A stretch of 64,000 nt of DNA. It comes from an uncultured Clostridium sp. Its GTDB lineage: Bacteria; Bacillota; Clostridia; Oscillospirales; Butyricicoccaceae. Below the pieces are notes generated by a model, which saw nothing but the letters and a program-made list of their open reading frames with translations, had not been told where the DNA came from and did no database searches. Positions 1,407 through 63,900 of the stretch are shown piece by piece (position 1 is the stretch's first letter; each line of letters opens with the position of its first letter). Both the position numbers and the translations under genes were made by a program. Location: NCBI GenBank assembly GCA_947427035.1, contig CANEGK010000005.1, positions 1-64,000 of the forward strand, read 5' to 3'.

Positions 1407-3326
1407 ATGGACAAGCAACTGGATCTGCGGCTTAAAGAGGCCGCGCAGCGTACGCTGCTATTGACCGAAGACCCCCGCTACGCACCCTTGCTGCGCCAGG
1501 CGGGCGTTTTCGCGCTTTCCTTCCTGCTGGCGGGCCTGCGGCTTCCCCCGGGCGGCGCGCCGTATGGGCTGGCCTATGCCGCTTCGCGGCGAAGCCTGCG
1601 TGAAGCGCTCGCCGCCTTTGCCGGCGCTTTTGCCGGCGCGCTGTGCTTTTTCGGCATGTCCGGTGTGCCTTATGCCGCGGCCGCTGTTTTGTGCTGCACT
1701 TGCCGCAGCGTTTTTTCCGGGCTGCGGCAGCCGACTGCTCTTTTTTTTCCGCCCCTGTGCGTCGGGGTTTCCATCGCTTTTATCAAAAGCGCCCTGGCCT
1801 GGGGTCAGGGCGCGCGCGCCATCCTCCTTCTGCTGCTTGAAGGGGCGCTGGCCGGAGGTGTCTGCCTGCTGCTCAGCCTATGCGGACAATCCAAAACACC
1901 CCAGCCGCTCCTGGCGCTTTGCCGCAGTGTGTACATCGGTATGACCAGCGCTTCCGGCGTGCAGTCGATCCGCCCGATGCCTCGCCCGACGCGCGCCGGG
2001 CCGCGCCTTCAGGCTATCGCCCGCGCCGTCTCCGACCTGGGCTGCGCCATTTCCCCGCTCTCCGCCGCGCGTACCCAGGCCGACCGCGAAGACATTTCCC
2101 GTATCTATGATCGGGCGGCCGACGAAGTCTGCCGCAAATGCTCGCTCGCTTCGCTCTGCTGGAGCCGCGAAGCGGTCGAAAGCTACGACGCTCTCAACAA
2201 CACAGCATCCCGTCTGCGCGAACAGGGCTCACTGTCGCCCGAGGACTTTCCCCCGCATTTTTCCAACCGCTGCGTCAACATGTCAAAGTTGTGTGACGCC
2301 ATCAACAGCCAGTACCGCTCCCATCTGCGGCGCTGCGCCATCCAGCGGCGGAGCGAACAAAGCCAGCGTCTGATGCGCGAAGGCTACAGCAGCCTGTGCG
2401 GCGTTCTGACCGGCGTGGCCGACGCCGTCGATCGAGCGCCCGAATACTACCCGGGGCTGGAAAACCGCGTCAAAAATATCGTCCACGCCTACTCCCCCAG
2501 CGCGCTGGTCAGCGTCTATTCCGAATCGGGGCGGCTGCACATTGAAATCGGCGTGCGCGGCGACGCGCCGCCTTTGCCCGACAGCGACGCCTTTCTGCAA
2601 AGCCTCTCGCTGGCGCTCGGCCGCACCTTTTGCCCGCCGGTGGAAACTCCGTCCAAGACGGGGCGCACCGTCCGCATCAGTGAAAGCGAACGCCTGCGCG
2701 CGTCGGTCTGCCGCGCGGTTCGGCAAAAGCAGGGGGAAGCCGTGTGCGGCGATTCCAGCGCGCATTTCCGCACCGACGACGGGCGCGCCGTTGTTCTTTT
2801 GTCCGACGGTATGGGCACCGGCGCCGAAGCGGAAAAGCTGTCGCGGACTGCTCTGACGCTTGTCTCACAGTTTGTCCGATCCGGCTGCACTGTGCAGGAA
2901 AGCGCGCGCGCCGTTCTCCCCGTCCTGGCCGCCCGGTTCGAAGACTGCGGCTTTGTCACCCTCGATTTGCTGGAGATCAATCTGTTCAGCGGCGAAAGCT
3001 GCCTGCTGAAGTATGGAGCCGCCCCGACCTTTGTGCTGCATGACGGCGCGGTGCGCCGCATCTTTTCCACCGCCATGCCGGCCGGCGCCGACCCGACGCT
3101 TCCCTCGCCCGAGCCCGCGCTTTTCAGGCTGTGTGCAGGCGACCGCGTTGTCATGGTCAGCGACGGCGTGTGCGACGGCGCGGACACCGGCGCCATCGCT
3201 CTTTTGTGCCGCGACGGCAGTTTCAGCCCGCAGGAGCTGGCCGGGCGCATTCTCAGCGCGCCCGACAGCGCCAAAACCGGCGACGACTGCACCGTGCTGG
3301 TCATTTCTCTTGCCGCTGCCGAATAA
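1407..3326 (+). CDS. spoIIE: stage II sporulation protein E-like PP2C serine phosphatase with N-terminal multi-TM domain
   Basis: The N-terminal third is hydrophobic. The C-terminal PP2C domain has the LSDGMGTG motif and a second Asp cluster VMVSDGVCDG. An AAGGAG RBS precedes the start. Confidence 0.75.
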   Translation: MDKQLDLRLKEAAQRTLLLTEDPRYAPLLRQAGVFALSFLLAGLRLPPGGAPYGLAYAASRRSLREALAAFAGAFAGALCFFGMSGVPYAAAAVLCCTCRSVFSGLRQPTALFFPPLCVGVSIAFIKSALAWGQGARAILLLLLEGALAGGVCLLLSLCGQSKTPQPLLALCRSVYIGMTSASGVQSIRPMPRPTRAGPRLQAIARAVSDLGCAISPLSAARTQADREDISRIYDRAADEVCRKCSLASLCWSREAVESYDALNNTASRLREQGSLSPEDFPPHFSNRCVNMSKLCDAINSQYRSHLRRCAIQRRSEQSQRLMREGYSSLCGVLTGVADAVDRAPEYYPGLENRVKNIVHAYSPSALVSVYSESGRLHIEIGVRGDAPPLPDSDAFLQSLSLALGRTFCPPVETPSKTGRTVRISESERLRASVCRAVRQKQGEAVCGDSSAHFRTDDGRAVVLLSDGMGTGAEAEKLSRTALTLVSQFVRSGCTVQESARAVLPVLAARFEDCGFVTLDLLEINLFSGESCLLKYGAAPTFVLHDGAVRRIFSTAMPAGADPTLPSPEPALFRLCAGDRVVMVSDGVCDGADTGAIALLCRDGSFSPQELAGRILSAPDSAKTGDDCTVLVISLAAAE

Positions 3327-21511: not shown

Positions 21512-22516
21512 TTACTTGCGGTAAGCCCGCAGCTCTTCGACAAGGGCGGGGACGACCTTCAGCACGTCGCCGACAATGCCGTAATCGGCCACTTCAAAAA
21601 TCGGGGCCGTTTCGTCTTTGTTGATGGCGACGATATAGTCGGAATCTTCCATGCCGGCCAAATGCTGAATGGCGCCCGAAATACCGCAGGCGATATACAG
21701 CGTGGGCCGGACGGTCTTGCCCGTCTGGCCGACCTGGCGGTCTTTTGCAATCCACCCGGCGTCGACGGCCGCGCGCGACGCGGACACCGTGCCGCCCAGC
21801 TCTTCAGCCAGCTCTTCCAGCAGCTTGAAGTTGGCGGGACCGCCCATGCCGCGGCCGCCCGAAACCAGAATCTTGGCGTCCTGGATGTCGACCGTTTCGG
21901 CAATGGCCTTGACGACTTCCAGAATCTCGACGTTCTTCGCTTCGGCGGGCACTGCCCAATCCAGGTTGACGACTTCGCCCTTCCGCGCGCTGTCGGCCGG
22001 AATGCGCTGCATAACGCCGGGGCGGACGGTGGCCATCTGCGGCCGGTGCTCCGGGCACAGAATGGTGGCCATGATGTTGCCGCCAAAAGCCGGACGGGTC
22101 ATCATCAGGTTGCCGCTTTCTTCCTGAATATCGAGTCCCGTGCAGTCGGCCGTCAGGCCGGTATGTACGCGGGCCGAAACGCGGGGCGCCAGGTCGCGGC
22201 CGATGGCCGTCGCCGGGGTCAGAACGATTTCCGGCTTGAACTCGTTTACGATTTTGGCCATGGCCCAGGCATACGGCTCGGTCATATAGGTTTCAAGCTC
22301 GGGCTTGTCAAGAACGAGGACGCGGTCAGCGCCCGCGGCAATCAGCTCGCCGGTCAGGCCGCTCACTCCGCTGCCCAGCAAAACGGCCGTGACCTGCGTC
22401 CCGCGGGTCTGCGCCAGCTCGTGCGCTTTGCCGAGCAGCTCGAAAGCGACGCCGGCGACAATGCCGTCGACCTGCTGGGCGAAGACAAAGACGCCCTTAA
22501 AATCACTGATGTTCAT
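21512..22516 (-). CDS. etfA: electron transfer flavoprotein alpha subunit
   Basis: An FAD-binding C-terminal domain with the PTLYIACGISGAIQHLAG motif. Confidence 0.95.
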   Translation of the reverse strand: MNISDFKGVFVFAQQVDGIVAGVAFELLGKAHELAQTRGTQVTAVLLGSGVSGLTGELIAAGADRVLVLDKPELETYMTEPYAWAMAKIVNEFKPEIVLTPATAIGRDLAPRVSARVHTGLTADCTGLDIQEESGNLMMTRPAFGGNIMATILCPEHRPQMATVRPGVMQRIPADSARKGEVVNLDWAVPAEAKNVEILEVVKAIAETVDIQDAKILVSGGRGMGGPANFKLLEELAEELGGTVSASRAAVDAGWIAKDRQVGQTGKTVRPTLYIACGISGAIQHLAGMEDSDYIVAINKDETAPIFEVADYGIVGDVLKVVPALVEELRAYRK

Positions 22517-22530
22517 CTTTCTCCGCCTCC

Positions 22531-23313
22531 TTAAATAATGTGCTTTTCAGCAAGATGCGCGACGATGGCCTGTGCGCCCTCGCGCGGGTCGAGCTTTTCA
22601 ACCGTACCGGCGGCCTTGGGGGTCTTGGTAAAGGATTTGAATACGCGGGTGGGCGAACCGGCCAGACCGATGTTGTCGTCGCTGATGTCGAGATCGGGAC
22701 GGGTGAAAATGGTGACCTTTTTCTCGCGGAACGCGTCAAAGATGCCGCCCGGCGTCATATAACGCGGGGTGTTGAGCTCGCTCAGCGCCGTGATCAGGCA
22801 GGGCAGTTTGGCGCGGATGGTGTGATAGCGGTCCTCGTACTGGCGCTTGACGACGACGCTGTCGCCCTCGAGCTTGATGTCCTCGGCATAGCTGATGTGC
22901 GCCAGACCCAGGTGCTCGGCAATCTGCGGGCCGACCTGGGCGGTGTCGCCGTCGATGGCCTGCCGGCCGGTGATGATCAGGTCATAGGGCAGCTTTTTGA
23001 TGGCGGCCGCCAGGGTCGACGAGGTCGCCCAGGTGTCGGCGCCGCCGAAGGCGCGGTCGGTGATGAGCACGGCTTCGTCCGCGCCCATGGCCAGCGCTTC
23101 ACGCAGCGCCAGGTCGGCCTGCGGCGGGCCCATGCTGACGACAGTAACGTGCGCGCCTGTCTGATCCTTCAGGCACAAAGCAGCTTCCAGCCCGGCCTTG
23201 TCGTCGGGGTTGATGATGGACGGCACGCCGTCGCGGATCAGGGTGCCGGTCACGGGGTCGAGACGCACTTCCGTTGTATCGGGCACCTGTTTGATGCAAA
23301 CGATAATGTTCAT
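22531..23313 (-). CDS. etfB: electron transfer flavoprotein beta subunit
   Basis: The N-terminal sequence MNIIVCIKQVPDT is typical of EtfB. Confidence 0.95.
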   Translation of the reverse strand: MNIIVCIKQVPDTTEVRLDPVTGTLIRDGVPSIINPDDKAGLEAALCLKDQTGAHVTVVSMGPPQADLALREALAMGADEAVLITDRAFGGADTWATSSTLAAAIKKLPYDLIITGRQAIDGDTAQVGPQIAEHLGLAHISYAEDIKLEGDSVVVKRQYEDRYHTIRAKLPCLITALSELNTPRYMTPGGIFDAFREKKVTIFTRPDLDISDDNIGLAGSPTRVFKSFTKTPKAAGTVEKLDPREGAQAIVAHLAEKHII

Positions 23314-23328
23314 GTCCTGTCTCCTCCC

Positions 23329-24462
23329 TTACAGCGTGCCGGCGATGACCATGCGCTGGACCTCGCTGGTGCCCTCGTAGATTTCGGTGATCTTGGCGTC
23401 GCGCATCATGCGCTCGACCGGGTATTCGCGGGTGTAGCCGTAGCCGCCGAAGAGCTGTACGCACTTGGTCGTCACTTCCATGGCGGTCTCCGCCGCGAAG
23501 AGCTTGGCCATAGCGGCTTCTTCCGAAAAACGCTTCTTGGTGTCTTTGGCCATGGCGGCGCGGTAAACGAGCAGCCGCGCGGCCTCGATGCGGGTCTTGA
23601 GATCGGCCAGGGTGAACTGGGTGTTCTGGAACTTCATGATGGGCCGGCCGAACTGCTTGCGCTCTTTGACGTATTTGACGGTCTCGTCAAACGCGCCCTG
23701 CGCCAGGCCGAGCGCCTGGGCCGCGATGCCGATGCGGCCGCCGTCCAGCGTCTGCATGGCGATGCCGAAGCCCTTGCCCTCTTGTCCCAGCAGGTTTTCG
23801 GCGGGGACGATGCAGTTTTCAAAGATCAGCTCGGTCGTCGAGCTGCCGCGAATACCCATTTTCTTTTCCTTGGTGCCGATGGAAAAGCCCGGGAAGTCCT
23901 TTTCGACGATAAAGGCCGAAATGCCCTTGGTGCCCTTGGATTTGTCGGTCATGGCAAAGATGATGTACACGTCGGCCTGGCCACCGTTGGTGATAAAGAT
24001 TTTGCTGCCGTTCAAAACGTAGTGATCGCCCTGCTTTTCAGCGCGGGTCTGCTGGCCCGAAGCATCGGTGCCGGCGCCCGGCTCGGTCAGGCCGAAAGCG
24101 CCCAGTTTTTCGCCCTTTGCCAGCGGGACAAGGTATTTCTGAATCTGCTCGGGGGTGCCGAACTGCTTGATGGGGTTTGTGCCGAGCGACGTATGCGCCG
24201 ACACGATGACGCCCGTCGTGCCGCAGACGCGCGACAGCTCTTCAACGCACATGATGTAGGTCAGTGTGTCGCAGCCCTGACCGCCGACCTCGCGGGGGAA
24301 GGGGATGCCCAGGAACCCGTATTTCTTCAATTTTTCCACCGTTTCACGGGGGAAGCGTTCGGTTTCGTCCACCTCTTGCGCCAGGGGCTTGACCTCTGTT
24401 TCAGCGAACTTGCGGAACAGTTCGCGCGCCATGACGTGCTCTTTCGACAGAGCAAAGTCCAT
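23329..24462 (-). CDS. bcd: butyryl-CoA dehydrogenase (short-chain acyl-CoA dehydrogenase)
   Basis: Acyl-CoA dehydrogenase signatures (GAFGLTEPGAGTDA; QLFGGYGY). It is adjacent to etfBA. Confidence 0.95.
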   Translation of the reverse strand: MDFALSKEHVMARELFRKFAETEVKPLAQEVDETERFPRETVEKLKKYGFLGIPFPREVGGQGCDTLTYIMCVEELSRVCGTTGVIVSAHTSLGTNPIKQFGTPEQIQKYLVPLAKGEKLGAFGLTEPGAGTDASGQQTRAEKQGDHYVLNGSKIFITNGGQADVYIIFAMTDKSKGTKGISAFIVEKDFPGFSIGTKEKKMGIRGSSTTELIFENCIVPAENLLGQEGKGFGIAMQTLDGGRIGIAAQALGLAQGAFDETVKYVKERKQFGRPIMKFQNTQFTLADLKTRIEAARLLVYRAAMAKDTKKRFSEEAAMAKLFAAETAMEVTTKCVQLFGGYGYTREYPVERMMRDAKITEIYEGTSEVQRMVIAGTL

Positions 24463-24480
24463 GCTAGTCCCTCCCTTTAT

Positions 24481-25317
<837 letters not shown>

Positions 25318-25364
25318 GTCTTCTTTCCTCCAAGTCTCTTGTTTATGTCCTGACAAGTGCTGAT

Positions 25365-26141
25365 TCAGCGGTTTTTAAAGCTCTCGACCTTGCGCTTTTC
25401 CAAAAAGGCCTGCATTCCCTCGCGCTGGTCTTCCGTTTCAAAGCAGCTTCCGAACAGCTTTTCTTCGATGACGACAGCGCTGTCCATATCGACCTGCATT
25501 CCTTCATTGATGGCTTTTTTGCAGGCGCGCACGGCGATGGGGGCGTTTTTGGCGATGCCGGCGGCCATTTTTTTCGCGGCGGGCAGCAGCTCTTCCTGCG
25601 GGTAGACGGCGTTGACCAGTCCGACGCGCAGGGCCTCGTCCGCCTTGATGTTGCGGGCGCCGTAAATCATCTCTTTCGCCTTGCCCAGTCCGACGACGCG
25701 CGGCAGACGCTGCGTGCCGCCAAAGCCCGGTGTGATGCCCAGACCGACTTCGGGCTGGCCGAACACCGCGTTGTCCGAGCACAGGCGGATATCGCAGCTC
25801 AGCGCAATTTCGCAGCCGCCGCCCAGCGCAAAGCCGTTGACCGCAGCGATGACGGGGATAGGCAGTGTTTCGATGAGCCGGAACAGGTCGTTGCCCTTTT
25901 TGCCCAAAGCCTCGCCTTCCGCCTTGCTCAGCGTGCTCATTTCACCGATGTCCGCGCCGGCGACAAAGCTCTTTTCCCCCGCGCCGGTCAAAACGACGCA
26001 GCGGACCGTTTCCAGATCAATGGCTTCGAAGGTCTGGCGCAGCTCGTCGAGCACGGCGCTGTTGAGCGCGTTGAGCGCCTTGGGGCGGTTGACGGTGACG
26101 ACGGCCGTTGCGCCGTCCTGCTCGTACAGTACGTATTCCAT
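25365..26141 (-). CDS. crt: short-chain enoyl-CoA hydratase (crotonase)
   Basis: A crotonase fold with catalytic Glu residues ([11 protein letters not shown]; FGQPEVGLG). Confidence 0.95.
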
Positions 26142-26153
26142 AAAACTTCCTCC

Positions 26154-27335
26154 TTACTCGCGCTCGACAACGGTGGCGCAGCCCATACCGCCGCCGATGC
26201 ACAGCGTGGCCAGGCCGCGTTTGCTGCCGCGCTTCTGCATTTCATGCAGCAAGGTGACCAGAATACGGCAGCCCGAAGCGCCGACCGGGTGCCCCAGCGC
26301 GATAGCGCCGCCGTTGACGTTGACCTTTGCCATGTCAAACCCGAGATCGCGCGCCACGGCAACGGACTGCGCGGCGAACGCCTCGTTGGCCTCGATGAGA
26401 TCGAAGTCGTTTATGCTCAGGCCGGTTTTTGCCAGCACCTTCCGGGTGGCGGCGATCGGTCCGGTGCCCATAATGGCAGGGTCGACGCCGCCCAGCGCGC
26501 CGGCGACCCATACGGCCATCGGCTTGACGCCCAGCTCTTTGGCCTTTTCCTCACTCATAACGACGACGGCCGCCGCCCCGTCGTTGATCGATGAGGCATT
26601 GCCGGCGGTGACCACGCCGCCCTGTTTAAAGGCAGGACGCAGACGGGCCAGCCCTTCCAGCGTCGTGCCGGGGCGCGGGCCCTCGTCGGTATCTACAACG
26701 ATTGTCTCTTTTTTCTTTTTGACCTCGATGGGGACGATTTCGTCTTTAAACCGCCCGCTTTCGCGCGCGGCGCAGGCCTTATTCTGGCTGTCTACCGCAA
26801 AGCTGTCCAGCTCTTCGCGGGTCAGTCCCCATTTTTCCGCCACATTCTCGGCGGTAATGCCCATGTGGTAGTCGTTAAAAGCGTCCCACAGGGCGTCATG
26901 CACCATGGCGTCGACCAGTTTTCCGTCGTTCATGCGGTAGCCGTAGCGGCCGTTCTGCACCAGATACGGTCCCTGCGACATATTTTCCATGCCGCCGGCG
27001 ACGACAATGTCGGCTTCGCCGCATTCGATCAGCCGCGCCGCCGTGTTGACGCTTTCCAAGCCCGAGCCGCAGACGACGTTAAGGGTGATGGCCGGCGTTT
27101 CGACCGGCAGACCGGCCTTAATGGAAGCCTGCCGCGTGACGTTCTGCCCAAGGCCGGCCTGAATGACACAGCCCATGTAAACCTGATCCACCTGTTCGGG
27201 CTTCACTCCCGCCCGCTCCAATGCAGAACGGATGACGGCAGCTCCGAGATCGGCGGCAGGCACTGTGCTCAAAGCGCCACCCATACTGCCGACTGCGGTG
27301 CGGCAGGCACCTGCCAAAACAACTTTTTTGGACAT
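26154..27335 (-). CDS. thl: acetyl-CoA C-acetyltransferase (thiolase)
   Basis: The Cys-88-like active site (AVGSMGG...NQ) and the C-terminal GGGMG..CIGGG. The start was re-placed after AAAGGAG. Confidence 0.95.
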
Positions 27336-27420
27336 GCTGATTTCTCCTTTTCTGTTTTTTAGTGCCGCGGGCATAACAGCACCGTGGTCTGTTTCATAGG
27401 CTCCGCGGGAGCCTTCTCCT

Positions 27421-27452
27421 TTCAGTGTACTCTTTTTTGGAGCAATGTCAAA
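27421..27452 (-). promoter_or_regulatory. putative promoter of the thl operon (TTGACA-16-TACACT) with an upstream AT-rich region carrying direct ATTGATA repeats
   Basis: This is the minus-strand reading, about 100 nt upstream of the thl start codon. Confidence 0.4.
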
Positions 27453-27503
27453 CAATTATCAATATTTTTTTATCAATTTTTTATTGGGGCTTTCGCAGAC
27501 AGG

Positions 27504-56422: not shown

Positions 56423-56785
56423 GGCAAGTATGCCGAACAGCCGCCTGCGCCGGCGTAAGGCTGCGCGGGAGGAAAGTCCGGGCTTCACAGAGCAGGATAG
56501 CGGATAACGTCCGCCGAAGGCGACTTCAGGACAAGTGCAACAGAGATATACCGCCCCCGGCAATTGCCGGAGGTAAGGGTGGAAAAGCGAGGTAAGAGCT
56601 CACTGAACCCATTGGCAACAATGGGCTCCTGTAAACTCTATCCGAAGCAACATCAAGCGGGGGCTGCGCTTTGCGCAGGGCTTGCTCGGCCCGCCCCCCA
56701 AAAGGGTGGCTTGAGGCGCGCGGCGACGCGCGACCCAGACAGATGGCTGTTTTTTAACAGAACCCGGCTTACACGCATGCTTGCC
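56423..56785 (+). ncRNA. rnpB: RNase P RNA, bacterial type A
   Basis: The conserved elements GGGAGGAAAGUCCGGGCUUCACAGAGCA, GUGCAACAGAGA, GGUAAGGGUGAAA, GGUAAGAGC and the 3' ACAGAACCCGGCUUAC are present. P1 pairs GGCAAGUAUGC with GCAUGCUUGCC. Confidence 0.9.
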
Positions 56786-56792
56786 AAAAAAT

Positions 56793-56822
56793 GCCCCGAG
56801 ACGCATGTCCCGGGGCGCTTTT
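56793..56822 (+). terminator. Rho-independent terminator after rnpB
   Basis: gccccgagacgcatgtcccggggc followed by GCTTTTT. Confidence 0.75.
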
Positions 56823-56845: not shown

Positions 56846-57135
56846 TTAATCCGCCGTGTTTTGCAGCGCGTATTTTTCAATCAGCTCCTGCGCCAGCTCG
56901 GGCGTAGGCAGGTAGACTTCGTCGTCAATGACGAGCGTGGGCACGCCGATGGTGTGCTTTTCACGCACGGGCGCATGGGCCTGCGACGTATCGCGGATTT
57001 TCATAAACGCGCGCAGGGGCGTAATGCCCGAAGTGATGTCGATATAAACAAACTTGACCTGATTCTGGCAAAGAACCTCTTTGACCGGGCCGCAGCCCCC
57101 TCAATGCGGATTGCCGTACAGTGCTACCTTATGCA
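56846..57135 (-). CDS. glutaredoxin-like thioredoxin-fold protein with in-frame TGA at codon 12 within a U-G-G-C motif (candidate selenoprotein or pseudogene)
   Basis: An AAGGGGGAG RBS lies 4 nt before the ATG. The translation MHKVALYGNPH[TGA]GGCGPVKEVL...TIGVPTLVIDDEVY has a Grx/NrdH-like fold with a cis-Pro. A hairpin with a GGU loop and a bulged U lies 15 nt downstream of the TGA. Confidence 0.45.
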
Positions 57136-57287
57136 TAACGCTCCCCCTTTGTTATTGATTATCAAAATAAAATTTTCTTTTATTATAGTTTATTCAAATG
57201 CCTATGTCAAGCCGCTGCGCCGCCCTGCCCTGCGGCGGCAGAACACATATGCTATGCTTTCCCAAACGCTGATATTTTAAAAGGAGG

Positions 57288-57758
57288 ATGAGTAAACCAA
57301 TGGATACAATCTGCGGTGTGGACTGCACAGCGTGCAGTATGCAGCACGAATGCGGCGGGTGCGCCCGGACAAACGGCCGTCCCTTCGGCGGCGAATGCGT
57401 GCTGGCGGCCTGCTGCCGGCGCAGCGGGTATGAGGATTGCGGCGGGTGCGCCGCCCTGCCTTGCAGGCTCAAAGAACAGCTTATCGCAGAATTTAACGCG
57501 CTCGGCATCGAAGATATGGCGCAGGTCACCGGGCTCAACGCGCTCAGAGGCTCGTTCATCAACCTGGAATACGCGCTGCCGGGCGGGCAAACGGTCAAGC
57601 TGCTGGAAGACGGCAGGATTTATCTGGGGAATCAGGTTTGCAAAAAGGGCAGCGACCGCTGTTACGGCCTGGCCGCCGACGAAAACCGGCTGCTGGTCTG
57701 CGAATACGGCGAAGGCGGCTCGGATGCGGAAATCATTCTGTATAAAAAGAGAAAATAG
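57288..57758 (+). CDS. cysteine-rich protein (DUF3795-like)
   Basis: The N-terminal CGVDCTACSMQHECGGC...C motif cluster. AGGAGG RBS. The start may instead be the ATG at 57300. Confidence 0.55.
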   Translation: MSKPMDTICGVDCTACSMQHECGGCARTNGRPFGGECVLAACCRRSGYEDCGGCAALPCRLKEQLIAEFNALGIEDMAQVTGLNALRGSFINLEYALPGGQTVKLLEDGRIYLGNQVCKKGSDRCYGLAADENRLLVCEYGEGGSDAEIILYKKRK

Positions 57759-57807: not shown

Positions 57808-59697
57808 TTACTTCAAAAGATTGCTGTTGTTGACAATGGCGGCGCTGTACAGCAGTAGGATATCGGCATCGGTGAAGTCGACATGCTGGGACAGCAGCTT
57901 GCTGGGCAGATACCGCAGATCGACAACCGTAATCTTAGAATACTGCTCGAGCAGCAGGGGCGCCAGGCTGCTGCCGTAGGAATCGGAAAAGAGCACCAGA
58001 TGCCGTTCCCGCTTGGCGCTGGGGCAGTTGATGACGGTCAGCGGGCTGAGGCCAGACAGGAAGACGTCGTAGGCCGAACTGCCTTCGAGCAGGGCGGTGT
58101 TGTAAACCATGGTACCCGCGGGGGTCTGCATGTTGGAAACGCTGGCCGCTTCGGTATACGGGCTGGTCAGCCAGGTGATGGTCTCGGGCTTTATGCCGTC
58201 GACCAGGCGGCCGTAAGAGCCGGTAAAGCCGTTTTCGCGACGCTGCGGTGAAAAGGCCGAGGCGTCAATGCTGAAGCCCATTTTTTCGCCCAGCGCGTTG
58301 ACTACCCCCAAAAGCTCTTCCTGCTTCCAGTGCGGGTCCGTCAGGTAAAAATCATCAAGCGCCAGCTCGTCTGCGATGTCGATGAGGTTCCAGTCAAACA
58401 GCTGATTGCGCACTGCGCTCATCATGGCATCGTGGCTCAGGTACCGGGCAACCTGCGCGCGGGCATAGTAGCTTTTGTCGGGGATGATGGAGAGGTAGAC
58501 GTCATTTTCGGGGAAGTTGGCCTCGGCCAGCGCCGTCATCTTTTCCGTAAAAAGCGCGATGGACGCGCTGTCGAGCTCGGCCGGATTTTCGACGTATGTA
58601 TCGCCGACCTTCATCATGCCGTTGGCGTCGGGCACGGGCAGTGTGGAATCGAGCGAGCGGAAGGCGTTGGCCAGCGCGTTGCCGTATTCATTATCCATGG
58701 CGAGCAGAACCAGGTTGCCGATGCTTTCGACAAAAACGTTGCCCTCGTCGACGCCGACACAGATCCACTTGCGGGGGTTGACGTTTTCGCGAATGGCCTT
58801 TTTGGCGGCCTCGACGTCAGCCCCTTCAGGCAGGCGGAGCAGGCAGACGGAATGCGCCATTGTCATCATCATGGGCTCGGCGGCCAGGCCCTCGGCAATC
58901 TTCACCGAGTCGGTCCCAAGGTAATACTGAATATTTTCATCGGTGATGTCCGCTTCCAGCAGACGGCTGGTTTCAATCTGCCCGCCCACTTTGGCATAAA
59001 GCCACGCCATGATCATGGGCAGTTCGCTGTCAGCGGTCACCGTTTCACCGGTCAGAACCCGGGCGACGCGAAGCGAAAGCTCGCTCAAGCGCATTTCACT
59101 GACCATTTTCTGCGCCAGAGTCATATCGCTGCCCTGTACTTTGGCGTCCAGCGCTGCGTAACAGAGCGAAACCATGTCGCCGCGCAGAAAGTTTGTCAGA
59201 TCGACATCCCCGGGCAGCGTCATGGCGTCATGCAGCAGCTGCTGCCAATTGTCCCAGACCGAGCCCTGCTCACCGTCCCGATAGCCGAGGGCACGCAGCA
59301 CAAAGGTGGAAAACATCTGTGCGCTGGCAGGGGATTCGGGATCGAAATGGGTGGCGTCGGCGCCGGTGGTCAGGCCGGTTGAATAGGCATAGGCCAGGTA
59401 CTTGGTTGCATCCTCCCAGCCGGGGGCGTCGGTAAAGGGGTGCGTGTACTCTTCGCCGTACAGGGCGGTCGTTTCCTCGCCCAGCAGGCGGATGAGCATG
59501 ATGATGGCTTCCATACGGGTGGGGGCGCGGTTCAGCTCGTACCCATTGTCCGAGCCGCGCAGCAGCGACATGGCTTTGAGCGCATCGGCCTTTTGCTCGG
59601 CTGTAGCCGCGTCATAAGCGGCGGCGGACGGGATAAAGCCGGCGAACAGGCACAAAACGAGCGCCGAAGCCGCCAGCCTGCGGAAAATACGGTTCAT
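57808..59697 (-). CDS. secreted protein with signal peptide, N-terminal SLH-like repeat and large extracellular domain
   Basis: AGGAGG RBS and the signal peptide MNRIFRRLAASALVLCLFAGFIPSAAA. The segment YELNRAPTRMEAIIMLIRLLG resembles an SLH motif. The C-terminal LVLFSDSYGSS is an SGNH/DltD-like motif (weak). Confidence 0.5.
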   Translation of the reverse strand: MNRIFRRLAASALVLCLFAGFIPSAAAYDAATAEQKADALKAMSLLRGSDNGYELNRAPTRMEAIIMLIRLLGEETTALYGEEYTHPFTDAPGWEDATKYLAYAYSTGLTTGADATHFDPESPASAQMFSTFVLRALGYRDGEQGSVWDNWQQLLHDAMTLPGDVDLTNFLRGDMVSLCYAALDAKVQGSDMTLAQKMVSEMRLSELSLRVARVLTGETVTADSELPMIMAWLYAKVGGQIETSRLLEADITDENIQYYLGTDSVKIAEGLAAEPMMMTMAHSVCLLRLPEGADVEAAKKAIRENVNPRKWICVGVDEGNVFVESIGNLVLLAMDNEYGNALANAFRSLDSTLPVPDANGMMKVGDTYVENPAELDSASIALFTEKMTALAEANFPENDVYLSIIPDKSYYARAQVARYLSHDAMMSAVRNQLFDWNLIDIADELALDDFYLTDPHWKQEELLGVVNALGEKMGFSIDASAFSPQRRENGFTGSYGRLVDGIKPETITWLTSPYTEAASVSNMQTPAGTMVYNTALLEGSSAYDVFLSGLSPLTVINCPSAKRERHLVLFSDSYGSSLAPLLLEQYSKITVVDLRYLPSKLLSQHVDFTDADILLLYSAAIVNNSNLLK

Positions 59698-63670: not shown

Positions 63671-63892
63671 GCAAAAAAAGCCGGAAGAGCAGCAGAGATG
63701 CTCTTACCGGCTGAAAAATGCGCAGAGTAAGATAGCACAACTGCAAACAGATTGCAGACAGTCCTGCGGCTGTTGACCGCAGACCCACCGCCTGCGCACG
63801 CCTGCGCAGACAGTTCGGCGGATGTGCCTTTCGCCACCTTCGCAGCCTGCCGGCTCCAGTGGGTACTCATCGTCTCCGCGCCTCTATCAATG
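63671..63892 (-). promoter_or_regulatory. lysine riboswitch (L-box) with intrinsic terminator in the lysC leader
   Basis: The minus-strand sequence GAUAGAGGCGCGGAGACGAUGAGUAC...GGAG...GCUGCGAAGG...GAAAGG...CCGCCGAACUGUC matches the L-box core. The P1 3' strand is GCUAUCU. The terminator gccggUAAGAGC...GCUCUUCCGGC is followed by U7. Confidence 0.85.
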
Positions 63893-63900
63893 TTCCCCAT

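Follow-up and report, generated by a model that had tools for sequence, protein, structure and literature searches.

An in-frame TGA that probably encodes selenocysteine in a glutaredoxin-fold gene of an uncultured gut Clostridia lineage

When a glutaredoxin-like gene carries a TGA codon at the position of its first active-site cysteine, is this codon read as selenocysteine (Sec), or does it mark a gene that has been broken, miscalled, split, or decoded in some other way? The question is raised by the first 64,000 nucleotides of contig CANEGK010000005.1 (assembly GCA_947427035.1) of an uncultured Clostridium sp.; this whole stretch of DNA is called the window below. On its minus strand, positions 57136..56846 form a frame of 96 codons with the translation MHKVALYGNPH*GGCGPVKEVLCQNQVKFVYIDITSGITPLRAFMKIRDTSQAHAPVREKHTIGVPTLVIDDEVYLPTPELAQELIEKYALQNTAD*, or in outline MHKVALYGNPH*GGCGPVKEV...TIGVPTLVIDDEVYL...QNTAD. 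The earlier note on this DNA, made from the sequence alone, had proposed a selenoprotein gene here. Our comparative analysis makes it highly probable that UGA codon 12 encodes selenocysteine in a small glutaredoxin (Grx)-fold thiol/selenol-disulfide oxidoreductase. Recoding rather than decay, as the earlier note had argued, was supported by four lines of evidence, namely the conservation of the TGA, the constraint on both its sides, a covarying hairpin of the bacterial selenocysteine insertion sequence (bSECIS) type, and the identity of the nearest solved relative, which is a proven Sec-containing glutaredoxin. The features of the reading frame are as follows:

56846..57136, minus strand: coding sequence (CDS) of a putative glutaredoxin-fold selenoprotein of 96 residues (95 standard residues and Sec12), based on translation, Pfam, purifying selection, and a profile match to a PDB structure
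57101..57103, minus strand: in-frame TGA, codon 12, at the first position of the U-G-G-C redox motif and the putative Sec codon, based on ortholog conservation and on alignment to cysteine (Cys) relatives and to Sec13 of C. oremlandii Grx1
57092..57094, minus strand: TGC, Cys15, the resolving cysteine of the U-x-x-C motif, invariant in the family alignment
56939..56941, minus strand: codon CCC for Pro66, presumably the cis-proline (G-V-P-T) that precedes strand beta3; neither G64 nor P66 varies among 26 family members, and Pro71 is the equivalent residue in the structural model of homolog P0109
56848..56846, minus strand: TAA stop codon of the CDS, based on translation

The direct reading of the frame agreed with most of what had been described before. 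The TGA is codon 12 (57103..57101) within N-P-H-U-G-G-C and occupies the first-Cys position of a CxxC motif, the second Cys of which is codon 15; a GVPT motif was found in the translation where a cis-proline had been claimed. The ATG start and the length of 96 codons also held, whereas the start position of 57135 had to be corrected, since the ATG lies at 57136 and a start at 57135 gives the wrong frame.

The closest database homologs were gene calls shortened to 52–70 aa and left without a name. The DNA upstream of these shortened calls contained the same ATG, in the same frame, with TGA at the same codon. TGA stood at the homologous codon in 14/14 distinct TGA-bearing orthologs read as DNA, which were 42–100% identical and came from contigs of about 29–61% GC. 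The TGA-bearing genes amount to 18 distinct sequences in at least 28 independently assembled loci from various samples and lineages. Within the window species, the TGA is kept in four haplotypes of the gene (the window itself, L016, L018, and L023), and further TGA loci are L001/L004/L012, L005/L007, L008, L024, L013, L025, L028, L026, L027, L014, L009, and L029. The codon is kept even in L009, where the gene is 43% identical and the contig has 28% GC. Loci L013 and L014 come from named metagenome-assembled genomes of Clostridia and Bacillota, and L029 is an additional TGA-bearing ortholog beyond the 28-locus set.

In the scan of genome contigs, Cys was used as a placeholder for Sec, so that one of the two patterns could match only TGY; with these partly Cys-restricted patterns, the scan yielded no Cys ortholog and one spurious 12-residue match (L015). 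In the scan of metagenomes, the alignment and peptide patterns lay wholly downstream of codon 12 and were hence blind to that codon; all five new loci that it yielded (L024–L028; 42–77% identical, GC 29–54%) carry TGA. Neither frameshifts nor additional stops were present in any ortholog read. The comparison of orthologs that had been suggested to distinguish Cys from TGA at codon 12 thus came out in favor of TGA, which was kept both within the species and in lineages that are 42–49% identical. TGC was found at codon 12 in more distant relatives and in one close low-GC ortholog.

The coding constraint around the TGA was estimated from Nei-Gojobori counts of the proportions of synonymous (pS) and nonsynonymous (pN) differences among six high-GC orthologs:

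Codons 2–11 (5' of the TGA): pS 0.455, pN 0.139, pN/pS 0.31
Codons 13–25 (directly 3' of the TGA): pS 0.103, pN 0.022
Codons 26–96: pS 0.665, pN 0.153, pN/pS 0.23

The codons on both flanks of the TGA are under purifying selection in one frame. With pN/pS at about 0.2–0.3 on either side, the 5' piece is read in the same frame as the remainder of the gene, so that neither a pseudogene nor a sequencing error nor a split gene is tenable. Decay, which had been expected to show as damage at the level of single nucleotides, was therefore not seen. Residues 13–25 were the most conserved part of the protein, with the lowest pN of the three segments.

The stretch that encodes these residues also contains the putative recoding element:

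57067..57086, minus strand: SECIS-type hairpin with the core GG-U(bulge)-CAAAGA, a GGU loop (57077..57075), and UCUUUG-CC, based on RNAfold, bSECIS criteria, covariation, and synonymous suppression

This hairpin, GGUCAAAGA-GGU-UCUUUGCC, starts 15 nt past the TGA, its GGU loop lies 23 nt from the UGA, and an extension of the lower stem is possible at about 57096..57051. RNAfold recovered the hairpin when folding began at the UGA. The published bSECIS consensus comprises a loop of 3–9 nt, an upper stem of 4–16 bp, a G in the first two loop positions, a distance of 16–37 nt from the UGA to the loop, and a minimum free energy of at most −7.5 kcal/mol (PMC13188914 Fig. 2A). The window hairpin agrees with this consensus on 5/5 points, with its GGU loop, an upper stem of 6 bp, the distance of 23 nt, and −10.0 kcal/mol with the lower stem included. 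A first single-hairpin scan, which was unconstrained, chose other hairpins in several orthologs, and the scoring of orthologs was restricted to the conserved loop position; all five criteria held in 6/12 orthologs.

In an alignment of 11 orthologs, 85.2% of the cells in the hairpin stem were paired, compared with at most 65.9% in slid-register controls. The observed percentage of paired cells, the number of cells with two-sided changes, and the covariation score were reached in 0/500 shuffles; the count of pairs with a two-sided change was unremarkable (317/500 shuffles), and the RNAalifold consensus was weak (−2.5 kcal/mol). Stem pair 24-38 is CG in four orthologs, GC in two, AU in one, and UA in one. 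In addition, synonymous change in the window clade was about 6.5-fold lower in codons 13–25. When each codon was counted once, degenerate codons for invariant amino acids varied at 2/12 positions near the TGA vs 36/41 elsewhere in this clade (Fisher p=8e-6). The codons fixed near the TGA include CTT, GTT, and GGG, which are minor in the genome (13% of Leu, 20% of Val, and 18% of Gly codons, respectively). The fit to the published consensus, together with the covariation, gave a positive answer to the SECIS prediction that the earlier note had recommended.

At the protein level, with Cys standing in for Sec, residues 4–73 matched the Pfam Glutaredoxin model PF00462 at 26.8 bits, above the gathering score of 22.9. 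The former label of a Grx/NrdH-like protein is therefore fair. No NCBIfam model reached its cutoff for the window protein. An exhaustive HMMER search of 1.8 billion representatives revealed 84 relatives, which are a mix of fragments starting with "MKEVLS," forms with "W" at the codon in question, and true CxxC forms; about 15 further "W" forms, along with the Cys ortholog P0105, came from an alignment-based search. Residues R48, D49, G64, and P66 are invariant in the 26 family members, which gives the signature [FY]LK[IL]RD...G-[IVL]-P. The best PDB match of the family profile was 7c10/7c12, the Grx1 of C. oremlandii (cGrx1), with E=6.9e-10, and the TGA codon aligned to its catalytic residue 13. 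According to the published description, cGrx1 occurs natively as a selenoprotein, its motif is U(C)-P-X-C, and its catalytic residue is residue 13 (PMC7642778).

An AlphaFold model was built for P0109, the closest of the natural Cys homologs, which is 51% identical to the window protein. The model (pLDDT 83.5) is predicted to have a beta-alpha-beta-alpha-beta-beta-alpha order, that is, the canonical Grx topology, with the CxxC residues 17–20 at the start of helix H20-29 and Pro71 directly before strand E72-75. Strand beta1, which is encoded 5' of the TGA, is integral to the modeled fold. The Foldseek matches of the model were overwhelmingly Grx, Mrx (mycoredoxin), NrdH, and methanoredoxin. The classical motifs of glutathione binding are CPYC, TVP, and GG-x-D-D. 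Judged by these generally known motifs, the family sequences carry U-G-G-C or U-P-G-C, a proline motif G-[VIL]-P, and no G-G before the D-D of strand 4.

Relatives with Cys in place of the putative Sec provided a natural comparison. TGC was verified on DNA in L032 (P0018, with the motif H-C-S-G-C), L033 (P0105), and L034 (P0109), and the exhaustive protein search contained many further CxxC relatives. The gene in L033 (4700-4996), a recent convert to Cys, is 85% identical to the Sec form in L026 and syntenic with it as well as with the Sec form in L009; it keeps the hairpin stem, but the one G of the apical loop is gone via the synonymous change GAG>GAA. This single example may show how a SECIS element decays once Sec has been converted to Cys. 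Of the two more distant Cys forms, L034 lacks the hairpin, whereas that of L032 is weak and rich in G-U pairs. Pairs of natural Sec and Cys orthologs, for instance L026/L033, are useful for studies of Sec-to-Cys conversion and of SECIS decay. A Cys-rich C-terminal tail, commonly C-x-[LI]-D-G-x-G-C, was also observed in P0041, P0062, P0063, P0080, P0087, P0090, P0093, and P0119. This tail is confined to a subset of the Cys forms and does not occur in the Sec clade; it could be a second redox or metal site.

Several observations weigh against the insertion of selenocysteine. No tRNA genes were found in the window, no tRNA-Sec in 17 related loci, and no SelA, SelB, or SelD domains among the window open reading frames (ORFs) scanned with Pfam; a scan of the window for TGA-interrupted frames detected no second selenoprotein candidate and gave off-frame noise only. 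The window covers 64 kb of the genome, and the missing Sec machinery in it is an absence of data, not evidence of absence. When the 71-nt region was folded whole, the hairpin was not selected, with z=0.12 against dinucleotide shuffles, and when the protein was fixed and codons were resampled from window usage, 5.5% of the resamples were equally stable. The other 6/12 orthologs missed the energy criterion only, at −7.1 kcal/mol in four of them and about 0 in L009 and L026. In the low-GC clade (L009, L014, L026, and L027), no synonymous suppression was detected (7/12 vs 28/44 variable, p=0.75), and the RNA folds best when slipped by one nucleotide, with the loop AGUU and thus an extra base in the loop rather than a bulged U. 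Because this clade prefers the slipped register, some of the pairing observed may be due to conservation of the peptide V-K-E-[VF]-L. Finally, Rfam gave no SECIS match at the gathering or a permissive threshold, where no broad bacterial SECIS family is expected to match. An alternative pairing register for the low-GC clade was also tried and was rejected; on the full alignment, it did not beat its own controls.

Taken as a single sequence, the window hairpin is modestly better than chance, and it is the comparative data that make it significant. Of the former claim, the structure and its position 15 nt after the TGA stand; the diagnostic value ascribed to the single sequence does not, in view of the z-score and the share of equally stable resamples. 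The missing Sec machinery in the window and the related loci, the uncompelling single-sequence hairpin, and the low-GC clade without synonymous suppression are also what favors a Sec-independent read-through, in which a near-cognate tRNA (Trp, Cys, or Arg) would decode UGA12, perhaps stimulated by the hairpin, and a standard residue would stand at position 12. We regard this as improbable. Residue 12 is the catalytic nucleophile of a CxxC-type center, at which homologs have Cys and never Trp or Arg, and every "W" checked on DNA proved to be TGA. If Cys were the residue needed, a single mutation would yield TGC, a far more efficient codon, but TGA has been kept over deep divergence. Furthermore, the G[G/U] of the hairpin loop, the spacing, and the size match SelB-binding SECIS elements, and in the nearest homolog of solved structure, a proven selenoprotein, the aligned residue is Sec.

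The "W" in some public calls (P0005, P0012, P0094–P0108) could also be taken at face value, as a sign of an alternative genetic code with TGA for Trp or Gly (code 4 or 25); in a related explanation, the gene would be split into an 11-residue leader and a separately initiated protein. Both are very unlikely, and the alternative code is excluded. In-frame TGA was absent from about 1,700 codons of neighboring genes in L009 and from about 1,660 in L029, where Trp is encoded by TGG; in L001/L012, the stop codon of the ortholog is a TGA with a terminator behind it, and many long ORFs of the window end in TGA. A split gene is contradicted by the lack of a conserved start codon 3' of the TGA, by the strong conservation of residues 13–25 directly after it, and by the place of strand beta1 in the fold. 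The smallest probability, close to nil, falls to a nonsense mutation or miscall in an ordinary Cys-glutaredoxin gene, that is, a pseudogene or an error of sequencing or assembly. A broken gene would also give unnamed fragments of 52–70 aa, as in the public calls at this locus, but it would not account for the recurrence of TGA in all the independently assembled loci and distinct sequences counted above, for the purifying selection both upstream and downstream of it, for the intact promoter, ribosome-binding site (RBS), and terminator, or for orthologs that are free of frameshifts and extra stops.

With selenocysteine at codon 12 as the preferred reading, the function of the gene can be outlined as follows. 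Transcription would start from the consensus sigma-70 promoter and translation from the ATG at 57136. At UGA12, the hairpin (57086..57067, with the GGU loop 23 nt downstream) would recruit the complex of SelB, GTP, and Sec-tRNA(Sec), and Sec would be inserted in place of termination; that the residue is Sec and not another one, and that SelB is the decoding factor, is what we infer from the comparative evidence. The product would adopt the fold beta1-alpha1-beta2-alpha2-beta3-beta4-alpha3, with U12-G-G-C15 where helix 1 begins and the cis-proline (G-V-P66) opposite to it. By analogy with C. oremlandii Grx1, the catalytic cycle of the window protein would begin with an attack of Sec12 on a substrate disulfide, sulfenate, or selenenylsulfide. 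Cys15 would then resolve the mixed intermediate to an intramolecular selenenylsulfide, and an upstream reductase would re-reduce the protein.

The signals that flank the CDS are listed below:

57182..57210, minus strand: sigma-70 promoter, TTGACA-17 nt-TATAAT, with 12/12 consensus matches
57141..57147, minus strand: Shine-Dalgarno sequence GGGGGAG, 4 nt 5' of the ATG, read directly from the sequence
56784..56816, minus strand: intrinsic terminator, a 10-bp stem with 8 G-C pairs followed by a T-run, based on the sequence

The locus is a self-contained monocistronic gene with its own promoter, RBS, and terminator. A TTGACA...TATAAT arrangement is also present 5' of the gene in L001, L005, L008, L012, and L013, an RBS of the GGAGG type occurs at the equivalent position in all orthologs read, and terminator-like hairpins follow the gene in L012, L013, and L024. 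The strong RBS mentioned in the earlier note was confirmed as GGGGGAG with its spacing of 4 nt. A class A RNase P RNA (RF00010, 282 bits) lies at 56425-56787 on the plus strand, convergent with the selenoprotein gene; the terminator stem of the latter begins 6 nt past the 3' end of the RNase P RNA and may act as a bidirectional terminator.

The gene neighborhoods differed between clades. In the window clade, the gene has DUF3795 or an M20 peptidase upstream and RNase P RNA and murD downstream; in the low-GC clade, the order is PTAC-grx-ptb-buk; and in L029, the neighbors are rpsB and coaX. Because the neighboring genes differ between clades, the protein is suggested to be a general redox carrier rather than a pathway-specific one. 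The DUF3795-like gene (window 57288-57758, plus strand), which encodes a Cys-rich protein of about 152–156 aa, is divergent from the selenoprotein gene in the window species only, and the M20 peptidase takes its place in relatives. An ORF of 629–630 aa with a signal-like N-terminus and no Pfam match on record was observed at 57808-59697 (minus strand) in the window, at 2716-4608 in L001, and at 2399-4288 in L005; it adjoins dapH in three lineages. A lysine riboswitch (RF00168, 92.5 bits; 63725-63894, minus strand) is located upstream of an apparent lysC-dapA-dapB-dapH operon on the minus strand, whose gene order follows the Pfam annotation of L016, a nearly identical locus.

The window also contains butyrate-pathway genes (thiolase, crotonase/ECH, and ETF alpha; 21512-27455, minus strand) and a SpoIIE phosphatase gene (1407-3326, plus strand). 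Since both are present, the host is probably a spore-forming, butyrate-producing member of the Clostridia. The window lineage was detected in mouse and human gut metagenomes. An uncultured lineage of mouse and human gut Clostridia with butyrate-pathway genes is thus a probable selenium user, which is relevant to the influence of host selenium status on the microbiota.

The present reading amends the annotation of the gene, which the public collections searched contain only as unnamed fragments of 52–80 aa or as a full-length protein with a false Trp. The sole name in the sources searched was "glutaredoxin-related protein" (JGI), and none of these sources calls the clade a selenoprotein. About 25 full-length low-GC homologs carry the "W" (P0005, P0012, P0019, P0030, P0033, P0034, P0039, P0047, P0048, P0061, P0094–P0104, and P0106–P0108). 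Two of the "W" loci, L009 (2554-2832) and L029 (4705-4974), were checked on DNA; the codon is TGA in both, and their neighbors have no in-frame TGA. The "W" at the Sec position is an artefact of gene callers, which pick code 4 on AT-rich contigs and thereby mask selenoproteins. Since the protein stays below the cutoff of every NCBIfam model, the gene is likely to be overlooked by automated pipelines in the future as well.

Sec-containing glutaredoxins as such are already known. Families of bacterial selenoproteins with experimental verification include the entry "Glutaredoxin (Grx), PF00462, UxxC" (PMC13188914 Table 1; PMC9312934), and Sec-Grx genes had long before been described from Alkaliphilus, Moorella, and Geobacter (PMC1794560). 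Accordingly, the locus represents a distinct, so far unannotated clade of Sec-glutaredoxins with the "FLKIRD" insert, and it adds to the family a clade with its own signature. Neither a new recoding mechanism nor a new kind of selenoprotein is revealed. A broader proposal is a separate, almost obligately Sec-dependent family of Grx-fold carriers, characterized by H-U-[GP]-G-C, the [FY]LK[IL]RD insert, and its own SECIS type, with a reductant and a substrate unlike those of C. oremlandii Grx1, and widespread but unannotated in gut butyrate-producing and other Clostridia. We put this forward tentatively, as rather less than an even chance. If it is true, part of the thiol redox homeostasis in these organisms would depend directly on the selenium supply of the gut.

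Among known systems, the closest is Grx1 of C. (Alkaliphilus) oremlandii OhILAs. Like the window protein, it is a small Grx-fold protein of Clostridia whose helix 1 begins with a U-x-x-C motif that has Sec in first position. Its post-motif peptide TVKEFLSENN resembles the PVKE[VF]L..N found here, which is encoded in the window where the SECIS hairpin lies, and it gave the tightest structural superposition with the P0109 model (root-mean-square deviation 2.4–2.7 A). However, it is only about 19–20% identical to the P0109 model over this superposition, and the window protein alone matched it with an E-value of 0.055. Its motif is U-P-H-C rather than U-G-G-C or U-P-G-C, and the family described here has an insertion of about 12 residues between alpha2 and beta3 with the invariant [FY]LK[IL]RD. 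In addition, cGrx1 was proposed to reduce the selenoprotein MsrA (PMC7642778), whereas no msrA gene adjoins the present gene in any locus examined.

Among the NCBIfam models, the YruB family (TIGR02196) ranked first for Sec and Cys forms alike (E about 1e-8), and it likewise comprises small clostridial Grx-like proteins with no obvious glutathione-binding motif. However, the window protein scored 34 bits and all forms 27–38 bits against a cutoff of 88.55, so that they are not members. The UXX-star selenoproteins (NF041212, NF041114, and NF041211) are also Grx-like and show a weak similarity in the N-terminal half (E=2e-4 for the window protein). Judging by the family name, their Sec belongs to a U-x-x-stop C-terminus, whereas Sec12 here is part of a U-x-x-C motif and the C-terminus is ...QNTAD; their scores were 16–29 bits against cutoffs of 66–100, with 21.6 vs 66 for the window protein.

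As for the recoding signal, the SECIS element of E. coli fdhF is a hairpin that closely follows the UGA within the CDS; its stem has a bulged U, and its small apical loop contains G-G-U. The sequences of the two hairpins are unrelated, the window stem is shorter and A-U rich, and the low-GC clade has an extra base in the loop (AGUU). Set beside this generally known fdhF element, the window hairpin shares the position within the CDS, the G-G-U apical loop, and the bulged U.

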